Shown: positions 16,675 through 32,682 of the stretch, one piece after another | Numbering within the stretch: the stretch's first letter is position 1 | Layout: every line of letters starts with the position of its first letter | Assembly (NCBI GenBank): GCA_964632395.1 | Contig: CAZWES010000001.1 | Location: 25,287-89,286 of the forward strand | DNA from: an uncultured Candidatus Peribacteria bacterium | GTDB lineage: Bacteria > Patescibacteriota > Gracilibacteria > Peribacterales > Peribacteraceae | Reading direction: 5' to 3' | Length of the DNA stretch: 64,000 nt | The notes under the pieces: generated by a model | Databases searched by the model: none | The model's input: only the letters and a program-made list of their open reading frames with translations | What the model was told of the DNA's origin: nothing | Program-made: the position numbers and the translations under genes

Positions 16675-19600
16675 ATGAATCCGCAATCTGCCCCGATCGG
16701 CCAGAAAACAGAAAAAGCTCAGGATATTCCGATGGTTGAGGGAGTTTTAGGTGAGGGAGCTTCTCGAGTTGAATCCGCTCGTCTCTCGACTCCTCCGCAT
16801 CAGGCGCTACGCGCCCATGCGTCGTCGCTCGAGAAGAGCGGTGATCTCCCCGCAAGAAAAAAAGGTCTCAGAATCGAGCGCAGGTTTACAACTCCGGGAA
16901 CTGATCCGCTTAAATCTGTGCAGTACGAAAAGCGCACAAGCCGCATTACAAACACAGATGGGTCCGTTGTATTCGAGATGGAAGGTGCGGAGATTCCTTC
17001 AGGATGGTCACAGGTCGCAACGGATATTGTGGTTAGCAAATACTTCCGCAAGGCTGGTGTTCCTCAAACAGACGATCAGGGCAACATTAAAAAAGATCAG
17101 GAGGGGAAAGTTGTAACAGGACCGGAGAAATCAGTGAAACAAGTAATAAGGCGGCTTGTTTCCTGCTGGAGGCACTGGGGCGAGAAACATCATTATTTTG
17201 ATACCGTGCAGGATGCTCAGGCGTTTGAGGATGAGCTCGCACACATGCTCATACATCAGAAAGCAGCGCCGAACAGTCCTCAGTGGTTCAATACGGGTCT
17301 ATATCACTCATACGGAATCACAGGACCGGCGCAGGGGCATTACTATTCTGATCCTCTCACGGGAGTAGTCAGAGAAAGTACAGATGCATATACGCATCCT
17401 CAGCCTCACGCATGCTTCATCCAGTCCGTAAAAGATGACATGGTAAACCCCGGAGGAATAATGGATTTGTGGATGCGCGAGGCGAGGCTATTCAAATACG
17501 GATCCGGAACGGGAACCAACTTCAGCGAAGTGCGAGGATCTGGAGAGGCGCTTTCCGGCGGCGGGAAAAGCTCCGGACTCATGAGTTTCCTAAAAATCGG
17601 TGACCGTGCCGCGGGTGCAATCAAATCCGGAGGAACCACACGCCGTGCTGCAAAGATGGTGTGTCTGGATCTCGATCATCCGGATATCGAGGTATTCATC
17701 AACTGGAAGGTAAAGGAGGAAAAGAAAGTCGCAGCCATGCGCGATGCCGGCTACACAACCGACTTTAACGGAGAAGCCTACCAAACCGTTTCCGGACAAA
17801 ACTCAAACAATTCTGTCCGTATCCCACACACATTCTTCCAGGCACTTGAGAGTGACGCTGATTGGCATCTTTTGCATAGAACAGAGAGACGAAAGGCGGC
17901 ACAGGAAAATCGTCCCCCGAATCCATGCAAAACCATCAAAGCAAAGGATATCTGGAGCCAGATTGCAGATGCCGCATGGGCGTGTGCGGATCCCGGCATT
18001 CAGTTCGAAACCACAATAAACGACTGGCACACATGTAAGGCGGCGGGTCCAATTCGTGCAAGCAATCCGTGTAGTGAGTATATGTTTTTGGATGACACCG
18101 CCTGCAATCTGGCATCGCTCAATCTCCTTAAATTCTTCGATGGAGAAAAAGGCGCATTCCACATAGAAGATTTTCGCCACGCAGTCAGACTGTGGACGAT
18201 TGTTCTTGAAATCTCTGTGTTGATGGCGCAGTTTCCCAGTCGTGAAATTGCAAAACTCTCATATGAGTTTCGGACATTAGGTCTTGGATATGCAAACCTC
18301 GGCGCCATGCTCATGCGAATGGGGATTCCGTACGATTCACCAAAAGCGCGAGCAATATGCGGAGCACTCAATGCAATTTTGACCGGAGATGCGTATGCCG
18401 AATCTGCACGCATTGCGGAAATTATGGGAGCGTTCCAGAAGTATCCGGAAAACCGCGATCACATGCTTCGCGTAATTCGCAATCACCGGCGCGCTGCATA
18501 TAATTCACCTCCGCATGAGTTTGAAGATTTGCACGTCATTCCAGTTGGGATTGATCAGGATCTGTGTCCTTCAGATTTACTCAGGGCGGTGCACAATTCG
18601 TGGGATGAAGCGCTAAAACTCGGAGTGGAGCATGGATTCCGAAACGCACAGGTCACGGCCGTTGCGCCAACCGGAACAATTGGGCTTTTGATGGATTGCG
18701 ATACGACCGGAGTGGAACCGGACTTCGCTTTGGTCAAGTTCAAAAAGCTCGCAGGAGGCGGATACATGAAGATCGCAAACCAGTCCGTGCGCCCAGCTTT
18801 GATATCACTTGGATACACAGAAGAGCAGGTTGAAGAAATTATGCAGTACGTCCTCGGGAAACTTTCGTTTGAAGATTCTCCGCACGTAAATCGTGAGTCA
18901 TTGAAAGAAGCAGGATTCACAAGTGATGAAATTGCAAAGGTGGAAGCGGAGTTACCCAAAGTATTTGAACTTTCTTCCGCTTTCAATAAATGGGTGCTCG
19001 GGGAAGAAACCTTAAAACGCCTCGGTTTCTCATCTGAACAGTATGATGACTCTGCATTCAATATGCTCGCTTCGCTTGGATTCACACAAAAGCAGATTGA
19101 TGAAGCGAATGAAACGATCTGCGGCAAGATGACGATCGAGGGTGCGCCGTACGTTCGTGATGAGCACTTGCCAGTCTTTGATTGCGCGAACAGATGCGGA
19201 AAGAGCGGCGAACGCTTCATAGAGCCAGAGGGCCACATTCGCATGATGGCAGCTGCACAGCCCTTCATTACTGGTGCAATCAGCAAAACCATCAACCTTC
19301 CGCACGAAGCAACATCCGAAGACATCAAGAGTTGTTATCTTTTGAGCTGGAAGCTGGGTCTCAAAGCAAATGCCTTGTATCGTGATGGATGTAAGTTGAG
19401 CCAACCGCTTTCCACAAAGAGTGATACGGAAGAAGGGACGGGGACAGGGACGGAGGTTCAAAAGGTTGTGGAAAAGGTCATAGTCAAAGAGGTGCCGCGT
19501 CGTAGGAAATTGCCGGATGAGAGAACGAGTATTACGCATAAGTTTTCCGTTGTCGGGCACGAGGGGTACGTCACTGCTGGGTTGTATGAAGACGGGAAGC

Positions 19601-22149: not shown

Positions 22150-22352
22150 GTGGCGCGGGCGCATCCGATTGTTTATGAGTAGCTGTCGATCGGGTCAGGA
22201 TAGAAAATAGTTGTCGAGAGAGTAGGATCGCTCGCGCGGGGTTAGAATTGCTTCCACTAATGTTTTTCTCAGCATGTTCTTGCCCCGCGCGAGCGGTTCG
22301 GCATTCCGGCTTCGCTAGGCTCAGCCTACATGCCGAACGCGCACGCGCCACC
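22149..22352. repeat. Nested inverted-repeat (REP/BIME-like) element, copy 1, immediately upstream of the RayT gene
   Basis: Outer IR GGTGGCGCGGGCGC / GCGCACGCGCCACC. Inner IR CGCTCGCGCGGGG..AGAA / TTCTTGCCCCGCGCGAGCG. A further stem GTTCGGCAT/ATGCCGAAC is present. Confidence 0.8.
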
Positions 22353-22389: not shown

Positions 22390-23022
22390 ATGTATGACCC
22401 CGATATACGCATTCGGCACGGAAACTTTCTTCCACACTGGACAAAAGATGGAGGCATATACCACGTTCGTATTCGTCTTGCCGACTCACTACCACAGCAA
22501 AAATTGGATGAGTGGAAGCATGAGCGCGAAGATCTCGTTCGGCGAGCGTCAAAAGATAAAAGAAAGCTGACACGAGCGGAGCAGGAAAGATTAGATTTTC
22601 TATTTTCGGATAAGGTCGAGAAGTTTTTAGATTCTGGATATGGTGCCTGCTGGCTAAAGATAGATGAAATTGCGGAAATAGTCGCAGATACACTCTGGAA
22701 ATTTAATGAAGACAGTTACAAGCTATTTGCATGGTGCATCATGCCGAACCATGTGCACATAATTTTGCAGCAGCTTACAAAAGAGCTTCAGAAAATCATG
22801 CATTCTTTGAAGTGGTATACCGGCTTGCACTCAAATAAGATTCTTGGAAGAAGTGGAGAGTTCTGGCAGCGGGAATACTTTGATCACTTGATCAGGAATC
22901 AAGAAAGCCTGGAGCGAGCTGTTGAGTATGTGTGGAGCAATCCTGATAAGGCTGGTCTGAAAGATTGGAAGTGGCGATGGAGAGCTGATAAGCACGTGCA
23001 AGAAACGTTGATTAAATGCTAA
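22390..23022 (+). CDS. rayT: REP-associated tyrosine transposase (RayT / IS200-like Y1 transposase family)
   Basis: LFAWCIMPNHVHIILQ is the HUH motif. REYFDHLIRNQESLERAVEYVWSNPDKAGL is the C-terminal catalytic Tyr region typical of TnpA-REP. Confidence 0.8.
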   Translation: MYDPDIRIRHGNFLPHWTKDGGIYHVRIRLADSLPQQKLDEWKHEREDLVRRASKDKRKLTRAEQERLDFLFSDKVEKFLDSGYGACWLKIDEIAEIVADTLWKFNEDSYKLFAWCIMPNHVHIILQQLTKELQKIMHSLKWYTGLHSNKILGRSGEFWQREYFDHLIRNQESLERAVEYVWSNPDKAGLKDWKWRWRADKHVQETLIKC

Positions 23023-24025: not shown

Positions 24026-24123
24026 GTCTCTCGACTCGGCCGTGCTCTTCTCGAGCGAGAGAGCCCGTAGCGTAGCGGAGGGCGAACGAGTCGAGAGACG
24101 AGCACGGCCTCGCTCGAGAAGAG
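24026..24123. repeat. Composite X/Y repeat locus
   Basis: X 24026-24037, Y' (reverse complement of Y) 24045-24057, X' 24088-24099, Y 24111-24123. GCCGTGCTC / GAGCACGGC lie between them. Confidence 0.8.
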
Positions 24124-29917: not shown

Positions 29918-30910
29918 ATGATCCCAACTACCTCCATCCAACCCTTCCTCAATAACACTGTCGATGCGACCGACTTCAAAGATCTTGGCGAGCGCTACCA
30001 GGGCAAAGTGCGCGATGTATACAAAAAGGATGATCGCGTAATCCTAATCTCCACGGATCGCCAGTCGGCATTTGATTATGATTGGTGCAGTATTCCGCTC
30101 AAAGGCCAGGCGCTTAATCAATTGAGTGCGTGGTGGTTTGAGAAAGTAAAGGACGTTATGCCCACGCATGTGATTGCCGTGCCGGATCCAAACATCACAG
30201 TTGCAAAGAGGTTAGAGATGGTGAAAGTAGAAGTGGTTGTGCGTGCATATCTAACGGGATCTACTTCCACGTCCGCATGGGTCAATTACAAGGACGGTGT
30301 GAGAAACTTCTGCGGAAACGAATTGCCGGATGGTATGGTCAAGAACCAATCCTTCGCCTCCGTCCTGGATGATGACATCATCTTCACTCCATCTACTAAG
30401 CCCGAGACCGGCCACGATGTTTCAGCAAGTTCTGAGGAGCTAATCGAAATGGGAGTAACAACGCCTGAAGAGATAGAAAAGCTCAAGGAATATGCGTTTG
30501 CACTCTTCCGTCGTGGGCAGCAAGTGGCAGCGGAGCATGGCCTAATCCTCGTCGATACCAAGTACGAGATGGGTTATGACAGTGACGGAGTTTTGACTGT
30601 TGGCGACGAAGTACACACTCCGGATTCATCCAGGTATTGGGTTGCAGAGTCCTACCAGGAGCGATTTGAGCGCGGAGAGGAACCTGAATATTTGGATAAA
30701 GAATTCTTCCGCTTGTGGCTACGTGAACAGGGCTTCGAGTACGACAAGCCAAAGCCAGAAGTCACAGATGATGCAAGGGTCATGTTAGCCCAGCGTTATG
30801 TGGATTTGTATGAGAGGATGACGGGGGAGGGGTTTAAGATAGAGGAGGGGAATGTGATTGAGAGGATGGAGAGGAATTTGGAGGGGTATAGAGTGGGAGT
30901 AAGCGTATAA
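29918..30910 (+). CDS. purC: SAICAR synthase
   Basis: YQGKVRDVYKKDDRVILISTDRQSAFD...LILVDTKYEMG is typical of PurC. Confidence 0.85.
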   Translation: MIPTTSIQPFLNNTVDATDFKDLGERYQGKVRDVYKKDDRVILISTDRQSAFDYDWCSIPLKGQALNQLSAWWFEKVKDVMPTHVIAVPDPNITVAKRLEMVKVEVVVRAYLTGSTSTSAWVNYKDGVRNFCGNELPDGMVKNQSFASVLDDDIIFTPSTKPETGHDVSASSEELIEMGVTTPEEIEKLKEYAFALFRRGQQVAAEHGLILVDTKYEMGYDSDGVLTVGDEVHTPDSSRYWVAESYQERFERGEEPEYLDKEFFRLWLREQGFEYDKPKPEVTDDARVMLAQRYVDLYERMTGEGFKIEEGNVIERMERNLEGYRVGVSV

Positions 30911-30916
30911 AAGTTA

Positions 30917-31344
30917 CTCTTCTCGAGCGGTCCACTTCTCATCTGATAGAGCGGTTGATAGAAAAATGAGCTGCAAAGCGGGTAGTCGAGAGACTTATCA
31001 GTGCTATCATTTTCACCCTATGTCTACAGGTCCATTTTATCTATACATCATAGAGTGTAGTAATGGTAAGTATTACACGGGCACAACTTCCAACATTGAA
31101 AAACGTTGGAAAGAACACTGTGAAGGAGGAGGGTGCAAATATACCCGTCGATATCCTCCAAAGAAGCTAGTTTTTGTTAAAGAATTTCAAAGTATTATGC
31201 AAGCACGAGAGAAAGAGCATCAGGTAAAGGATTGGAGCCAGAAAAAGAAAAGGAAGCTGATTTCTGGTGAGTGGGAGTAAGTCTCTCGACTCCCCCCCGA
31301 CTCGCCATGCTTCGCATGGCTCGCTCGGGGTCGCTCGAGAAGAG
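30917..31344. mobile_element. GIY-YIG gene bracketed by inverted copies of the X-Y repeat
   Basis: Left flank: Y' CTCTTCTCGAGCG 30917-30929 and X' AGTCGAGAGAC 30984-30994. Right flank: X GTCTCTCGACTC 31281-31292, hairpin GCCATGC TTC GCATGGC, and Y CGCTCGAGAAGAG 31332-31344. Confidence 0.55.
31020..31280 (+). CDS. GIY-YIG nuclease family protein (UPF0213/YhbQ-like)
   Basis: FYLYIIECSNGKYYTGTTSNIEKRWKEHCEGGGCKYTRRYPPKKLVFVKEF...REKEHQVKDWSQKKK. Confidence 0.8.
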   Translation: MSTGPFYLYIIECSNGKYYTGTTSNIEKRWKEHCEGGGCKYTRRYPPKKLVFVKEFQSIMQAREKEHQVKDWSQKKKRKLISGEWE

Positions 31345-31377
31345 TAGCGTTTTGTGCTATAATGCAGGGAATTCCTA

Positions 31378-32364
31378 ATGCCCACAAACTCTCACTTTAA
31401 GGCGGAATATGATGCGGATGGGAATATTGTCCTGACGAGTGTTGGGGGCGGTGGGGGTGTGGAGGAGTGTGTCATGCTGAACGGAGGGCTGGCCGCTCGT
31501 GCTTCGTCTCCGCCCTCCGCTTCGCTCCGGGCTCCGCTCAGCATGACACGGCCAGTCCGTAGCCGAAGCATGCTTAGCCGCTTTGCGAACCCCCTCCGCT
31601 TCGCCGGCACCTTCGCAGGAGTATTCCTCTTGCTCTTCATAACTCTAAACTTTTCAAGTTACTTTCAGGTTTTCAAGGCAAAGCTGTTGCCGGATGCAGG
31701 GCAGGAAGATCGCCAGGCGCTCCACCTCATAACAAATCCAATTGAAAGGAATAAGTTGCTTGCAGTGCCGCATCTCCCACGTGCAGGAGTGGAGGATGCG
31801 TTGCCTATTGCGCCTTCCGTTGCCCCTCCGGATGATCGCCTGATAATCCCAAAGCTTGGCAAAAATATTCCGGTTGTAGCAGCTTCCGATGCTGCGCTTA
31901 ATCGCGGAGACTGGAAAATGTTCGAATCAGACATTCAAAACGCGTTGCTCTTCGGCGTTGTGCATTACCCTGGAACCGCGGAGCCCGGTCAGGTTGGAAA
32001 CGTCTTCATAACAGGCCACAGCAGTAACTATCCGTGGATAAGGAGCAGATACAATGCCGTGTTTGCTTTGCTTCCTCAATTACAGGTCGGGGATGAGTAC
32101 TCTTTGTTTTTTGAAGGAGAATTGCACAGGTATCGCATCACGGGTCGGAAGGAAGTCTCCCCGCGGGATGTAACAGTTTTGGATCAGCCACATAACAGAT
32201 ACATGAGTACGCTGATGACCTGTACTCCGGTTGGGACGACTTTGAAGAGGTTGATTTTGGAGGCGGATGAAGTGGATCCGGAAACGGGGGAATTGCTTGC
32301 GGTGGGCGGGATCGATGAGGTTGTGACGGGAATTGAGGATTGGGGGGAGGAGTTGCCGATGTAG
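31378..32364 (+). CDS. Sortase-family transpeptidase, membrane anchored
   Basis: TM helix FAGTFAGVFLLLFITLNF; VFITGHSSNYPW...STLMTCTPVGTTLKRLIL. The start is uncertain (alternative ATG at 31570) because the 5' region is GC-rich repeat sequence. Confidence 0.7.
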   Translation: MPTNSHFKAEYDADGNIVLTSVGGGGGVEECVMLNGGLAARASSPPSASLRAPLSMTRPVRSRSMLSRFANPLRFAGTFAGVFLLLFITLNFSSYFQVFKAKLLPDAGQEDRQALHLITNPIERNKLLAVPHLPRAGVEDALPIAPSVAPPDDRLIIPKLGKNIPVVAASDAALNRGDWKMFESDIQNALLFGVVHYPGTAEPGQVGNVFITGHSSNYPWIRSRYNAVFALLPQLQVGDEYSLFFEGELHRYRITGRKEVSPRDVTVLDQPHNRYMSTLMTCTPVGTTLKRLILEADEVDPETGELLAVGGIDEVVTGIEDWGEELPM

Positions 32365-32496
32365 GCTATTGCATTATATCTCTTAGTATGAGAGAATGGT
32401 GGTACAAATGACCTCAGGCGATGCTCGACGGAGCGTTGGTTACCCCGGGGTCCCCGAGGCACGAGGAAAGCCGGATGGGTGTCGTCCACGAGGCGG

Positions 32497-32682
32497 CTAC
32501 CTAATTTCCTCCTGCCGGAAGAACAGCCTTTGGCTCTTGCGGATCAGTTTCTTGAAGGTTGCAGAGTCCACCTCGCCAATTTTTCGCTTAAGCCGTTTGC
32601 TATCAACCAACCGAACCTGCGACAGAATTGCAGTTATTTCTCTATCATCAAATGTGAAGTTGAGGCAACTAAACCTGAGCAA
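32497..32682 (-). pseudogene. C-terminal remnant of a MazF/PemK/EndoA-type toxin
   Basis: REITAILSQVRLVDSKRLKRKIGEVDSATFKKLIRK parallels the [IL]L.Q[IV]R..D..RL..KI pattern of the EndoA/MazF C-terminal half. A TAA stop lies immediately upstream and the N-terminal half is absent. Confidence 0.5.

Follow-up and report, generated by a model that had tools for sequence, protein, structure and literature searches.

A single-domain GIY-YIG nuclease gene framed by inverted copies of a dispersed box-hairpin-box repeat in an uncultured Candidatus Peribacteria bacterium

We analyzed a stretch of 64,000 nucleotides (the window) from the genome of an uncultured Candidatus Peribacteria bacterium, in which a small gene encoding a GIY-YIG nuclease domain lies between inverted copies of a short repeat. 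Gene and repeats together form a 428-bp cassette (30917-31344) that has purC (SAICAR synthetase) on one side and a sortase gene on the other. Each repeat module consists of a 5' box X (GTCTCTCGACTC), a variable core, and a 3' box Y (CGCTCGAGAAGAG), and the cassette reads box Y (inverted), core, box X (inverted), gene, box X, hairpin, and box Y, with a terminal repeat that is perfect over 13 nt. The window's own genome (1.07 Mb, 32 contigs, 46% GC) is designated G000 and the nearest genus G059; comparisons extended to 121 genomes of the family. The features of the cassette are as follows.

30917..31344, plus strand: whole cassette (inverted module, probable promoter, GIY-YIG gene, direct module), 428 bp
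30917..30929, minus strand: box Y of the left module, CTCTTCTCGAGCG (the minus strand reads CGCTCGAGAAGAG), outer terminal inverted repeat
30930..30983, minus strand: core of the left module, 54 nt, AT-rich, non-hairpin, "class 2"; fold z = +0.3 to +0.8, no better than shuffles
30984..30994, minus strand: box X of the left module, AGTCGAGAGAC, inner inverted repeat, 11/12 bases
31002..31010, plus strand: extended -10-like element TGcTATCAT, read from the sequence, with the start codon 9 nt downstream
31020..31280, plus strand: GIY-YIG gene, UPF0213/YhbQ-like, single-domain, 86 codons, stop included in the coordinates; PF01541 E = 6e-20, 1zg2 E = 2e-16
31281..31292, plus strand: box X of the right module, GTCTCTCGACTC, directly abutting the stop codon
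31293..31331, plus strand: hairpin core of the right module, holding the perfect 7-bp stem GCCATGC-TTC-GCATGGC (31304-31320) with its TTC loop
31332..31344, plus strand: box Y of the right module, CGCTCGAGAAGAG, outer terminal inverted repeat; its TCGAGA is the -35 hexamer of the predicted sortase promoter

An earlier note on this DNA, written from the letters alone, had described the gene as bracketed by inverted modules ending in a perfect 13-bp terminal repeat, and a repeat search recovered this framing: the outer pair (30909-30929 and 31332-31352) spans 21 nt at 90% complementarity with a perfect core of 13 nt, and the inner pair (30980-30997 and 31278-31295) spans 18 nt at 94%. Every motif that the note had named was found at the position it gave. 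As single-stranded DNA, the right module folds at -17.4 kcal/mol (z = -2.95), and its core by itself gives z = -4.8. An extended -10-like element of the form TGnTAnnnT lies 7 to 15 nt upstream of the start codon in all five genes of the orthologous lineage described below; judged from its sequence, TGcTATCAT at 31002-31010 is probably the GIY-YIG gene's own promoter, which would make the mRNA nearly leaderless. A second promoter-like site (31335-31363) combines the TCGAGA of box Y with a 17-nt spacer and TG-TATAAT, and the sortase start lies 15 nt further on. An Rfam scan of 30000-32500 returned 0 RNA families at E ≤ 1, and no terminator-like site scored at the cassette. A 13-nt perfect direct repeat (GAGTGGGAGTAAG) is also present, one copy covering the final codons of purC (30891-30903) and the other the final codons and stop codon of the GIY-YIG gene (31269-31281). 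This repeat may reflect chance or integration microhomology, and the end of purC in G059 resembles GAGTGGGAGTAAG but differs from it.

The open reading frame (ORF) at 31020-31280 matched the Pfam GIY-YIG profile (PF01541) with E = 6.3e-20 and 71.7 bits (cut-off, 22.6) over profile positions 2 to 77 of 78. The domain spans residues 6 to 78 of 86 amino acids (aa), and the protein carries this single domain without an extra DNA-binding domain. Public gene calls on five metagenome contigs have the same 86-aa frame. A 104-codon reading from the ATG at 30966 was set aside because no gene call on record supports it, and the public calls and homologs all favor the 86-codon start. The best relatives among solved structures are the UPF0213 proteins BH0048 (PDB 1zg2, E = 2e-16) and EF2693 (1ywl), and the label "YhbQ-like" that the gene had been given was therefore right. 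The UPF0213/YhbQ family is poorly understood and has no settled function. A useful point of reference is SsnA of Neisseria meningitidis, a 94-aa GIY-YIG protein of CDD family cd10448 that binds and cuts single-stranded DNA beside the NTS hairpin repeat (Chenal et al., Nat Commun 2025, PMC11893778). When the catalytic columns were aligned with those of BH0048, YhbQ, and one NTS-flanked Ssn-type protein, the catalytic Tyr, Tyr, Arg, His, and Glu (Y9, Y20, R29, H33, and E65) were found to be kept in G000 and all four orthologs, and the residues mutated in SsnA (Y6, Y17, and E64) corresponded to the Tyr, Tyr, and Glu columns. Among the lineage genes, the proportion of nonsynonymous differences (pN) was 0.08 to 0.31 versus 0.73 to 1.0 for synonymous differences (pS). 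Since synonymous sites are saturated, we state only that pN is far below pS instead of giving a dN/dS ratio; on this sequence comparison, the protein is under purifying selection.

Besides uvrC, G000 holds nine small stand-alone GIY-YIG genes, which fall into two groups by all-against-all scores. The window protein clusters with three of the other G000 proteins and with the UPF0213 proteins, and two of these group-mates (at C4:19707-20286 and on C6) likewise lie between long inverted hairpin repeats, each of its own family. An exact flanking inverted repeat of at least 13 nt was found for 15 of the 1,040 ORF-called genes of G000, and 3 of these 15 are small GIY-YIG genes; each of these three, among the nine, has a separate repeat family. 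Two further arrangements were observed in G000. At C31:10008-10333, a small GIY-YIG gene has on one side a copy of a tRNA 5' half (anticodon-loop sequence, CTGATAATG) that is interrupted by a hairpin and on the other the intact tRNA, forming a tRNA-nested cassette at a contig end. At C6:9233-9973, one open frame encodes a fusion of a GIY-YIG domain with a Nudix hydrolase domain, and inverted copies of a GTCATCCCGAGTAGCGCCGAGTAGCCC-type repeat, present more than 20 times in G000, lie on both sides of it.

Within the window, box Y occurs five times at ≤1 mismatch (0.09 expected), as does box X (0.23 expected), and for either box 0 of 100 shuffles reached five. Genome-wide, X/Y repeats occupy only ~12 loci per 1.07 Mb in G000, far from the general abundance that the earlier note had held would speak against a tie to the nuclease gene. 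The modules take two forms, simple (X, core, Y) and compound (X, stem, inverted module, stem', Y), and both orientations were seen. Two gene-less copies lie elsewhere in the window.

16781..16838, plus strand: solo simple module (X-core-Y), in frame within the N-terminal part of an nrdJ-like gene and absent from the NrdJ of five relatives
24026..24123, plus strand: solo compound element (X, stem, inverted module, stem, Y), directly 3' of the EF-Ts stop codon

Both copies had been noticed before. The second, which had been called rearranged, is present and is of the compound form. The first is indeed a gene-less module, but its site proved to be intragenic, in frame within the 1,173-codon open frame of the nrdJ-like ribonucleotide reductase gene, and not intergenic. 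In all, five G000 copies are in frame in long conserved genes (nrdJ-like, der, thyA, a class II fumarase/aspartase-like gene, and a pilB/gspE-like ATPase gene, in which the insert is placed between two Cys-x-x-Cys motifs), and about half of the solo copies are in frame within essential genes.

A sample of 47 modules from G000 and G059 loci showed that the boxes are nearly invariant, whereas the cores vary in sequence and in length (13 to 40 nt in simple modules). The cores are mostly self-complementary, with 28 of the 47 folding better than shuffles at z < -2 (median z, -3.4). The "class 2" cores, to which the left arm of the window cassette belongs, are ~51 nt long, AT-rich, and non-hairpin; cores of this length class also occur in a G059 cassette (L196) and in G059 doublets (L289, L292, and L297). 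On average, 4.5 of the 6 reading frames of a module are open, whereas length-matched random segments of the genome average 3.1, and this shortage of stop codons helps explain why modules persist inside genes. Position 2 of box X and position 9 of box Y are linked across the sample, with 35 T:A modules, 12 C:G modules, and 0 mixed modules (Fisher p = 2e-11). The class 2 arm is the upstream one in the window cassette, whereas in the C4 cassette of G059 (L196 1425-1843) it lies downstream of the gene; the gene segment is inverted relative to the two unlike arms, as if it had been flipped between the inverted X boxes.

Palindromes of another family were seen close by. The N-terminal part of the sortase gene contains an in-frame 81-nt palindrome (31469-31549, GTGTCATGCTGAACGGAGG...CCGCTCAGCATGACAC), one end of which, GTCATGCTGAG, matches the terminal repeats of two other GIY-YIG cassettes, the one at C4:19707-20286 and its counterpart in G059 (L207). 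The GTCATGCTGAG family also provides a 42-nt exact inverted repeat that flanks a 426-codon ORF at C4:62239-63519. At four G059 loci (L300, L302, L305, and L306), inverted X/Y modules lie within the loops of GTCATGCTGAG-family elements, so that one family is nested in the hairpin of another. This nesting across families parallels the compound X/Y elements, in which an inverted module lies in the loop of its own kind.

The search of the 121 family genomes at a threshold of E ≤ 1e-22 yielded an orthologous lineage of five genes in four genomes, and X/Y modules lie on both sides of all five. This tie between gene and repeat is specific. The layout is inverted, as in the window, for both G059 genes (C4, 85% identity; C7, 65%) and for the G100 gene (77%), while the modules around the G116 gene (61%), three of them upstream and two downstream, all point the same way. 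Box Y counts against a control were 42 versus 5 in G059, a clear outlier among the 121 genomes, and, more moderately, 17 versus 7 in G000, with the five other closest genera at background. The link is weak in G100 (10 versus 5), and moderately raised counts were found in G003 (17 versus 4), G020 (15 versus 4), and G016 (14 versus 4), from which the orthologous GIY-YIG gene is absent. The box variants also follow the gene: the G059 C4 gene has T:A flanks, and its C7 paralog has C:G flanks, altered symmetrically in both arms. Since the boxes beside the gene are almost unchanged between genera in which pS is saturated, they are either constrained or homogenized. The link between the gene lineage and the X/Y repeats is exclusive, and it is both physical and phyletic.

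Comparison with G059 then bears on movement. G059 keeps the purE-purC-sortase synteny (PurC, 81% identical), and its purC-sortase junction has no gene, only an X/Y hairpin (CTTTTCTTGAGCGAG, a 19-nt loop containing GTCGAGAC, and then CTCGCTCGAGAAAAG). A further Y-like box after this hairpin serves as the -35 element of the sortase promoter (L167 2548-2585), and the window shares this arrangement of box Y plus a TG-extended TATAAT. Since the box-plus-promoter arrangement is common to both genera, X/Y predates the genus split at this site, the gene being an insertion or deletion within it, and a portion of the mobile repeat appears to have been retained as a promoter element. The earlier note had asked whether relatives carry the gene here without repeats; the nearest relative shows the reverse, repeats without the gene. 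G059 has its own cassettes at other loci. The site of its C7 cassette is empty in G000; the genes flanking the G059 C4 cassette have no homolog in G000.

G059 and four other genera lack the in-frame inserts of ThyA, PilB, NrdJ, and Der, which by this sequence comparison are younger than the genus split. The insert of the fumarase-like protein (FumC) is common to G000 and G059 and sits at the same codon, with a different core in each. G059 also carries at least six gene-less doublets, in which an inverted module, a spacer of 11 to 26 nt, and a second module follow one another (L289, L290, L292, L293, L296, and L303). These doublets share the termini of the cassette and amount to a cassette minus its gene; at least three of them (L290, L293, and L296) lie in fully open frames, like several other G059 copies that were retrieved. 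Taken together, the gene-less junction, the differently placed cassettes and the doublets of G059, and the lineage-specific in-frame copies indicate that the X/Y family has moved recently.

Given these observations, we consider it likely that the cassette is a selfish or domesticated unit in which a single-domain GIY-YIG nuclease is paired with its cognate repeat, following the logic of the Ssn/SRM and RAYT/REP systems. The 86-aa nuclease would recognize the boxes and hairpin in single-stranded DNA, such as that arising at replication forks, during transcription, or in incoming DNA, and would then nick close by; through repair or copying from another copy, modules, doublets without the gene, and now and then the gene as well could reach sites that are new or already occupied. 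By analogy with SsnA, we infer that the nuclease binds or cuts the modules, and we likewise infer the single-strand requirement and the copying mechanism. In kind, such a unit would match Ssn/SRM; what would be new is a UPF0213/YhbQ-like nuclease, bipartite boxes with hypervariable cores, recent mobility, and in-frame residence in essential genes. Both proposals of the earlier note gain support at this level: mobility with derivatives that resemble miniature transposable elements with inverted repeats (MITEs), from doublets that have cassette termini and from differing positions in the two genera, and a nuclease tied to the hairpins, from the flanking of 5/5 genes and from box variants that follow the paralog.

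Several observations weigh against this interpretation. A target-site duplication or clean excision footprint could not be defined at any of the four recent in-frame inserts, for which the comparison with G059 was made at the codon level and the flanks are too diverged for junctions to be placed to the base. All five metagenome contigs that carry the gene are 100% identical to the window, and thus no population polymorphism was seen. G116 has the gene, with box Y at background (8 versus 8). Of 19 more distant GIY-YIG homologs from relatives, only one is flanked by a long inverted repeat, of 25 nt, and three by repeats of 11 nt, so framing is not universal among small GIY-YIG genes. The published SRM search motif, HGTCWYN(0-2)YYVSBRHN(0-5)WNVSBRGN(0-2)RNCYNB, gave 2 hits in G000 versus 1 to 7 (mean, ~4) in ten first-order Markov simulations, and 0 hits fell within 400 nt of the nine small GIY-YIG genes; because the motif is not enriched, we do not file the X/Y repeats as SRMs.

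The protein itself also stands closer to another subfamily than the comparison with SsnA would require. As Ssn-type references we used GIY-YIG genes on loci that carry the exact NTS motif, taken from a scan of public genomes (L110 and L111). In L111 the gene is directly framed by NTS-type hairpins, and in L110 NTS-like hairpins lie beside the gene with the exact NTS ~5 kb off; both proteins have a Tyr-Tyr spacing of 11 and a Tyr-to-Glu distance consistent with Y6, Y17, and E64 of SsnA. The window protein scored 30 to 31 bits against these two versus 62 bits against the UPF0213 protein BH0048, and its Tyr-Tyr spacing is 10 residues, as in UPF0213, versus 11 in the Ssn type. Since it is nearer by score to UPF0213, any transfer of the SsnA activity to it crosses subfamilies. 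We therefore do not assign the window protein to cd10448, as the sequence proxies (bit scores and Tyr-Tyr spacing) point away from that family. An apparent "GTC tag" likeness between box X (GTCTC) and the SRM (GTCWY) was not relied on, as box X adjoins the gene and the NTS tag lies at the outer ends.

The N. lactamica record yielded a single small GIY-YIG gene, of the UPF0213 type and with no NTS nearby, and another locus (L036) proved to be an NTS cluster without the gene. The exact Neisseria NTS motif was also present at a locus (L087) of G043, a record titled uncultured Candidatus Peribacteria bacterium, in which all seven GIY-YIG matches contain in-frame TGA codons. These codons suggest either a recoded genetic code or a mislabeled bin.

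A broader version of the preferred interpretation is conceivable, although we regard it as doubtful, namely, that domain-only nucleases of the UPF0213/YhbQ type are transposase-like drivers of a class of "box-hairpin-box" miniature elements. Such an enzyme would read only the two short boxes, and the core would be replaced or regenerated at each copying event. Renewal of this kind would account for cores that are perfectly paired yet specific to each copy and for modules of one family lying in the loops of another; elements that are largely free of stop codons could, moreover, colonize essential genes in frame.

The alternative that survives best, which we judge to be rather unlikely, is that the GIY-YIG gene is a homing-type passenger, cutting existing X/Y copies as safe landing sites and being copied in by repair while the repeats spread by other means. 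The purC-sortase site fits this scenario, as X/Y is present there in both G000 and G059 and the gene in G000 only, with box Y and the sortase promoter being ancestral. Cassettes and solo copies share their bounding boxes; the core of the orthologous FumC insert is specific to each genome, as expected from conversion between copies; and G000 has C:G-type modules without a C:G-type gene. However, a homing nuclease must still recognize X/Y, such that this alternative overlaps the cognate nuclease-repeat unit that we prefer, and it leaves the spread of solo copies into ThyA, PilB, NrdJ, and Der without an enzyme. The match between box subfamily and paralog is expected under both models.

It is improbable that the X/Y repeats are REP-like substrates of an HUH/Y1 (RAYT-like) transposase domain and that the GIY-YIG gene merely happens to lie among them. 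HUH enzymes are established to act on DNA hairpins (discussed in PMC11893778), and the six Y1_Tnp matches in G000, which could act on the hairpins, count against a GIY-YIG-based unit. Two of them lie within ~1 to 2.5 kb of X/Y copies, where ~0.3 such pairs would be expected by chance: the match at window 22390-23022 is paired with the element at 24026-24123, and the leuS-embedded match at C4:14446 with the Der insert at C4:16844. Yet X/Y modules flank 0 of the 6 Y1_Tnp genes in G000, and G100, which has an X/Y-flanked GIY-YIG gene, has no HUH match. HUH domains are, in addition, found in seven of eight tested genomes without the orthologous GIY-YIG gene, with five of the seven at box Y background in the closest-genera count, although the count over the 121 genomes was moderately raised in G003, G020, and G016, and the boxes covary with the GIY-YIG paralog. 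In front of the RAYT-like HUH/Y1 ORF at 22390-23022 (210 aa) are two hairpins (22229-22295 and 22296-22338) that belong to a different family.

That the modules are immobile regulatory cis-elements of the host (terminators, promoter parts, or operators) seems to us very improbable, since, although box Y gives a -35-like TCGAGA to the sortase promoter that is conserved in G059, one compound copy directly follows the EF-Ts stop codon, and the G059 hairpin lies 3' of purC and just before a T-rich stretch, about half of the copies are in frame in conserved enzymes whose relatives have nothing there, the cassette has neither a terminator-like site nor an Rfam match, and copy number and positions vary between the sister genera.

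Whether the gene-plus-repeat unit moves, and what role it has outside Neisseria, were questions not settled by the 2025 work on Ssn (PMC11893778); this locus and its relatives supply comparative evidence of movement for such a unit. The two repeat subfamilies of G059, matched one-to-one to two nuclease paralogs, offer a natural pair for specificity-swap experiments. Since UPF0213/YhbQ is closer to the window protein than the sampled Ssn-type proteins are, the locus also suggests a testable activity for the UPF0213/YhbQ family. For annotation of ultra-small bacteria, elements of this type account for odd low-complexity loops in housekeeping proteins and for contig breaks beside these genes. A candidate type of enzyme is also suggested for in-frame palindromic elements of the Rickettsia kind. 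If the broader driver proposal were true, it would name an enzyme for such coding-region palindromes and describe a GIY-YIG-based route of DNA transposition in bacteria.

Among known systems, the UPF0213/YhbQ proteins (E. coli YhbQ; BH0048, 1zg2; EF2693, 1ywl) have the same domain-only size and share a G-x-G-x-K-Y-T-R-like motif with the window protein; seven near-canonical "GKGAKYTRSRRPV"-type homologs in relatives, by comparison, have no long flanking repeat (11 nt in one, 9 nt or none in the others). As with transposons and their MITEs, terminal repeats are shared by gene-bearing and gene-less elements, and elements are present or absent at orthologous sites. Rickettsia palindromic elements (RPEs; reviewed in PMC3184786) are short palindromes that lie in frame in conserved protein-coding genes and are apparently tolerated. 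The X/Y palindromes resemble them in being in frame in ThyA, PilB, Der, NrdJ, and the fumarase-like gene, and the palindrome is absent from orthologs, as in RPEs, for ThyA, PilB, NrdJ, and Der, the fumarase-like insert being shared with G059. We know of no mobilizing enzyme assigned to RPEs, whereas the X/Y family has a candidate enzyme gene that carries the same termini. The likeness to REP/REPIN-RAYT systems extends to a gene between inverted short palindromic repeats, gene-less inverted doublets, and repeat subfamilies matched to enzyme paralogs; in contrast, the enzyme fold is GIY-YIG and not HUH, and REPs are extragenic, whereas X/Y copies are often inside genes.

The closest parallel in organization is with Ssn/SRM. 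In various phyla, ssn genes are flanked by SRM repeats that are also scattered genome-wide, and the NTS-ssnA-NTS layout was likened by its authors to insertion sequences and to RAYT/REP (PMC11893778). The Ssn nucleases are characterized there by site-specific cutting of single-stranded DNA beside the repeat and by inactivity on duplex DNA and on RNA. The X/Y system similarly has a single-domain GIY-YIG protein of ~90 aa, a gene framed by inverted hairpin-forming repeats, repeats that are dispersed and co-occur with the gene across genomes, and distinct nuclease lineages with distinct cognate repeats. However, the X/Y repeat consists of two conserved boxes around a hypervariable core, whereas the SRM has a conserved stem, and X/Y occupies ~12 to ~40 loci and not hundreds, with many copies in frame inside genes versus 2% of NTS copies inside genes (PMC11893778). 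Movement of the Ssn/SRM unit was not shown in that study (PMC11893778), whereas comparative evidence for recent movement exists for the X/Y family.

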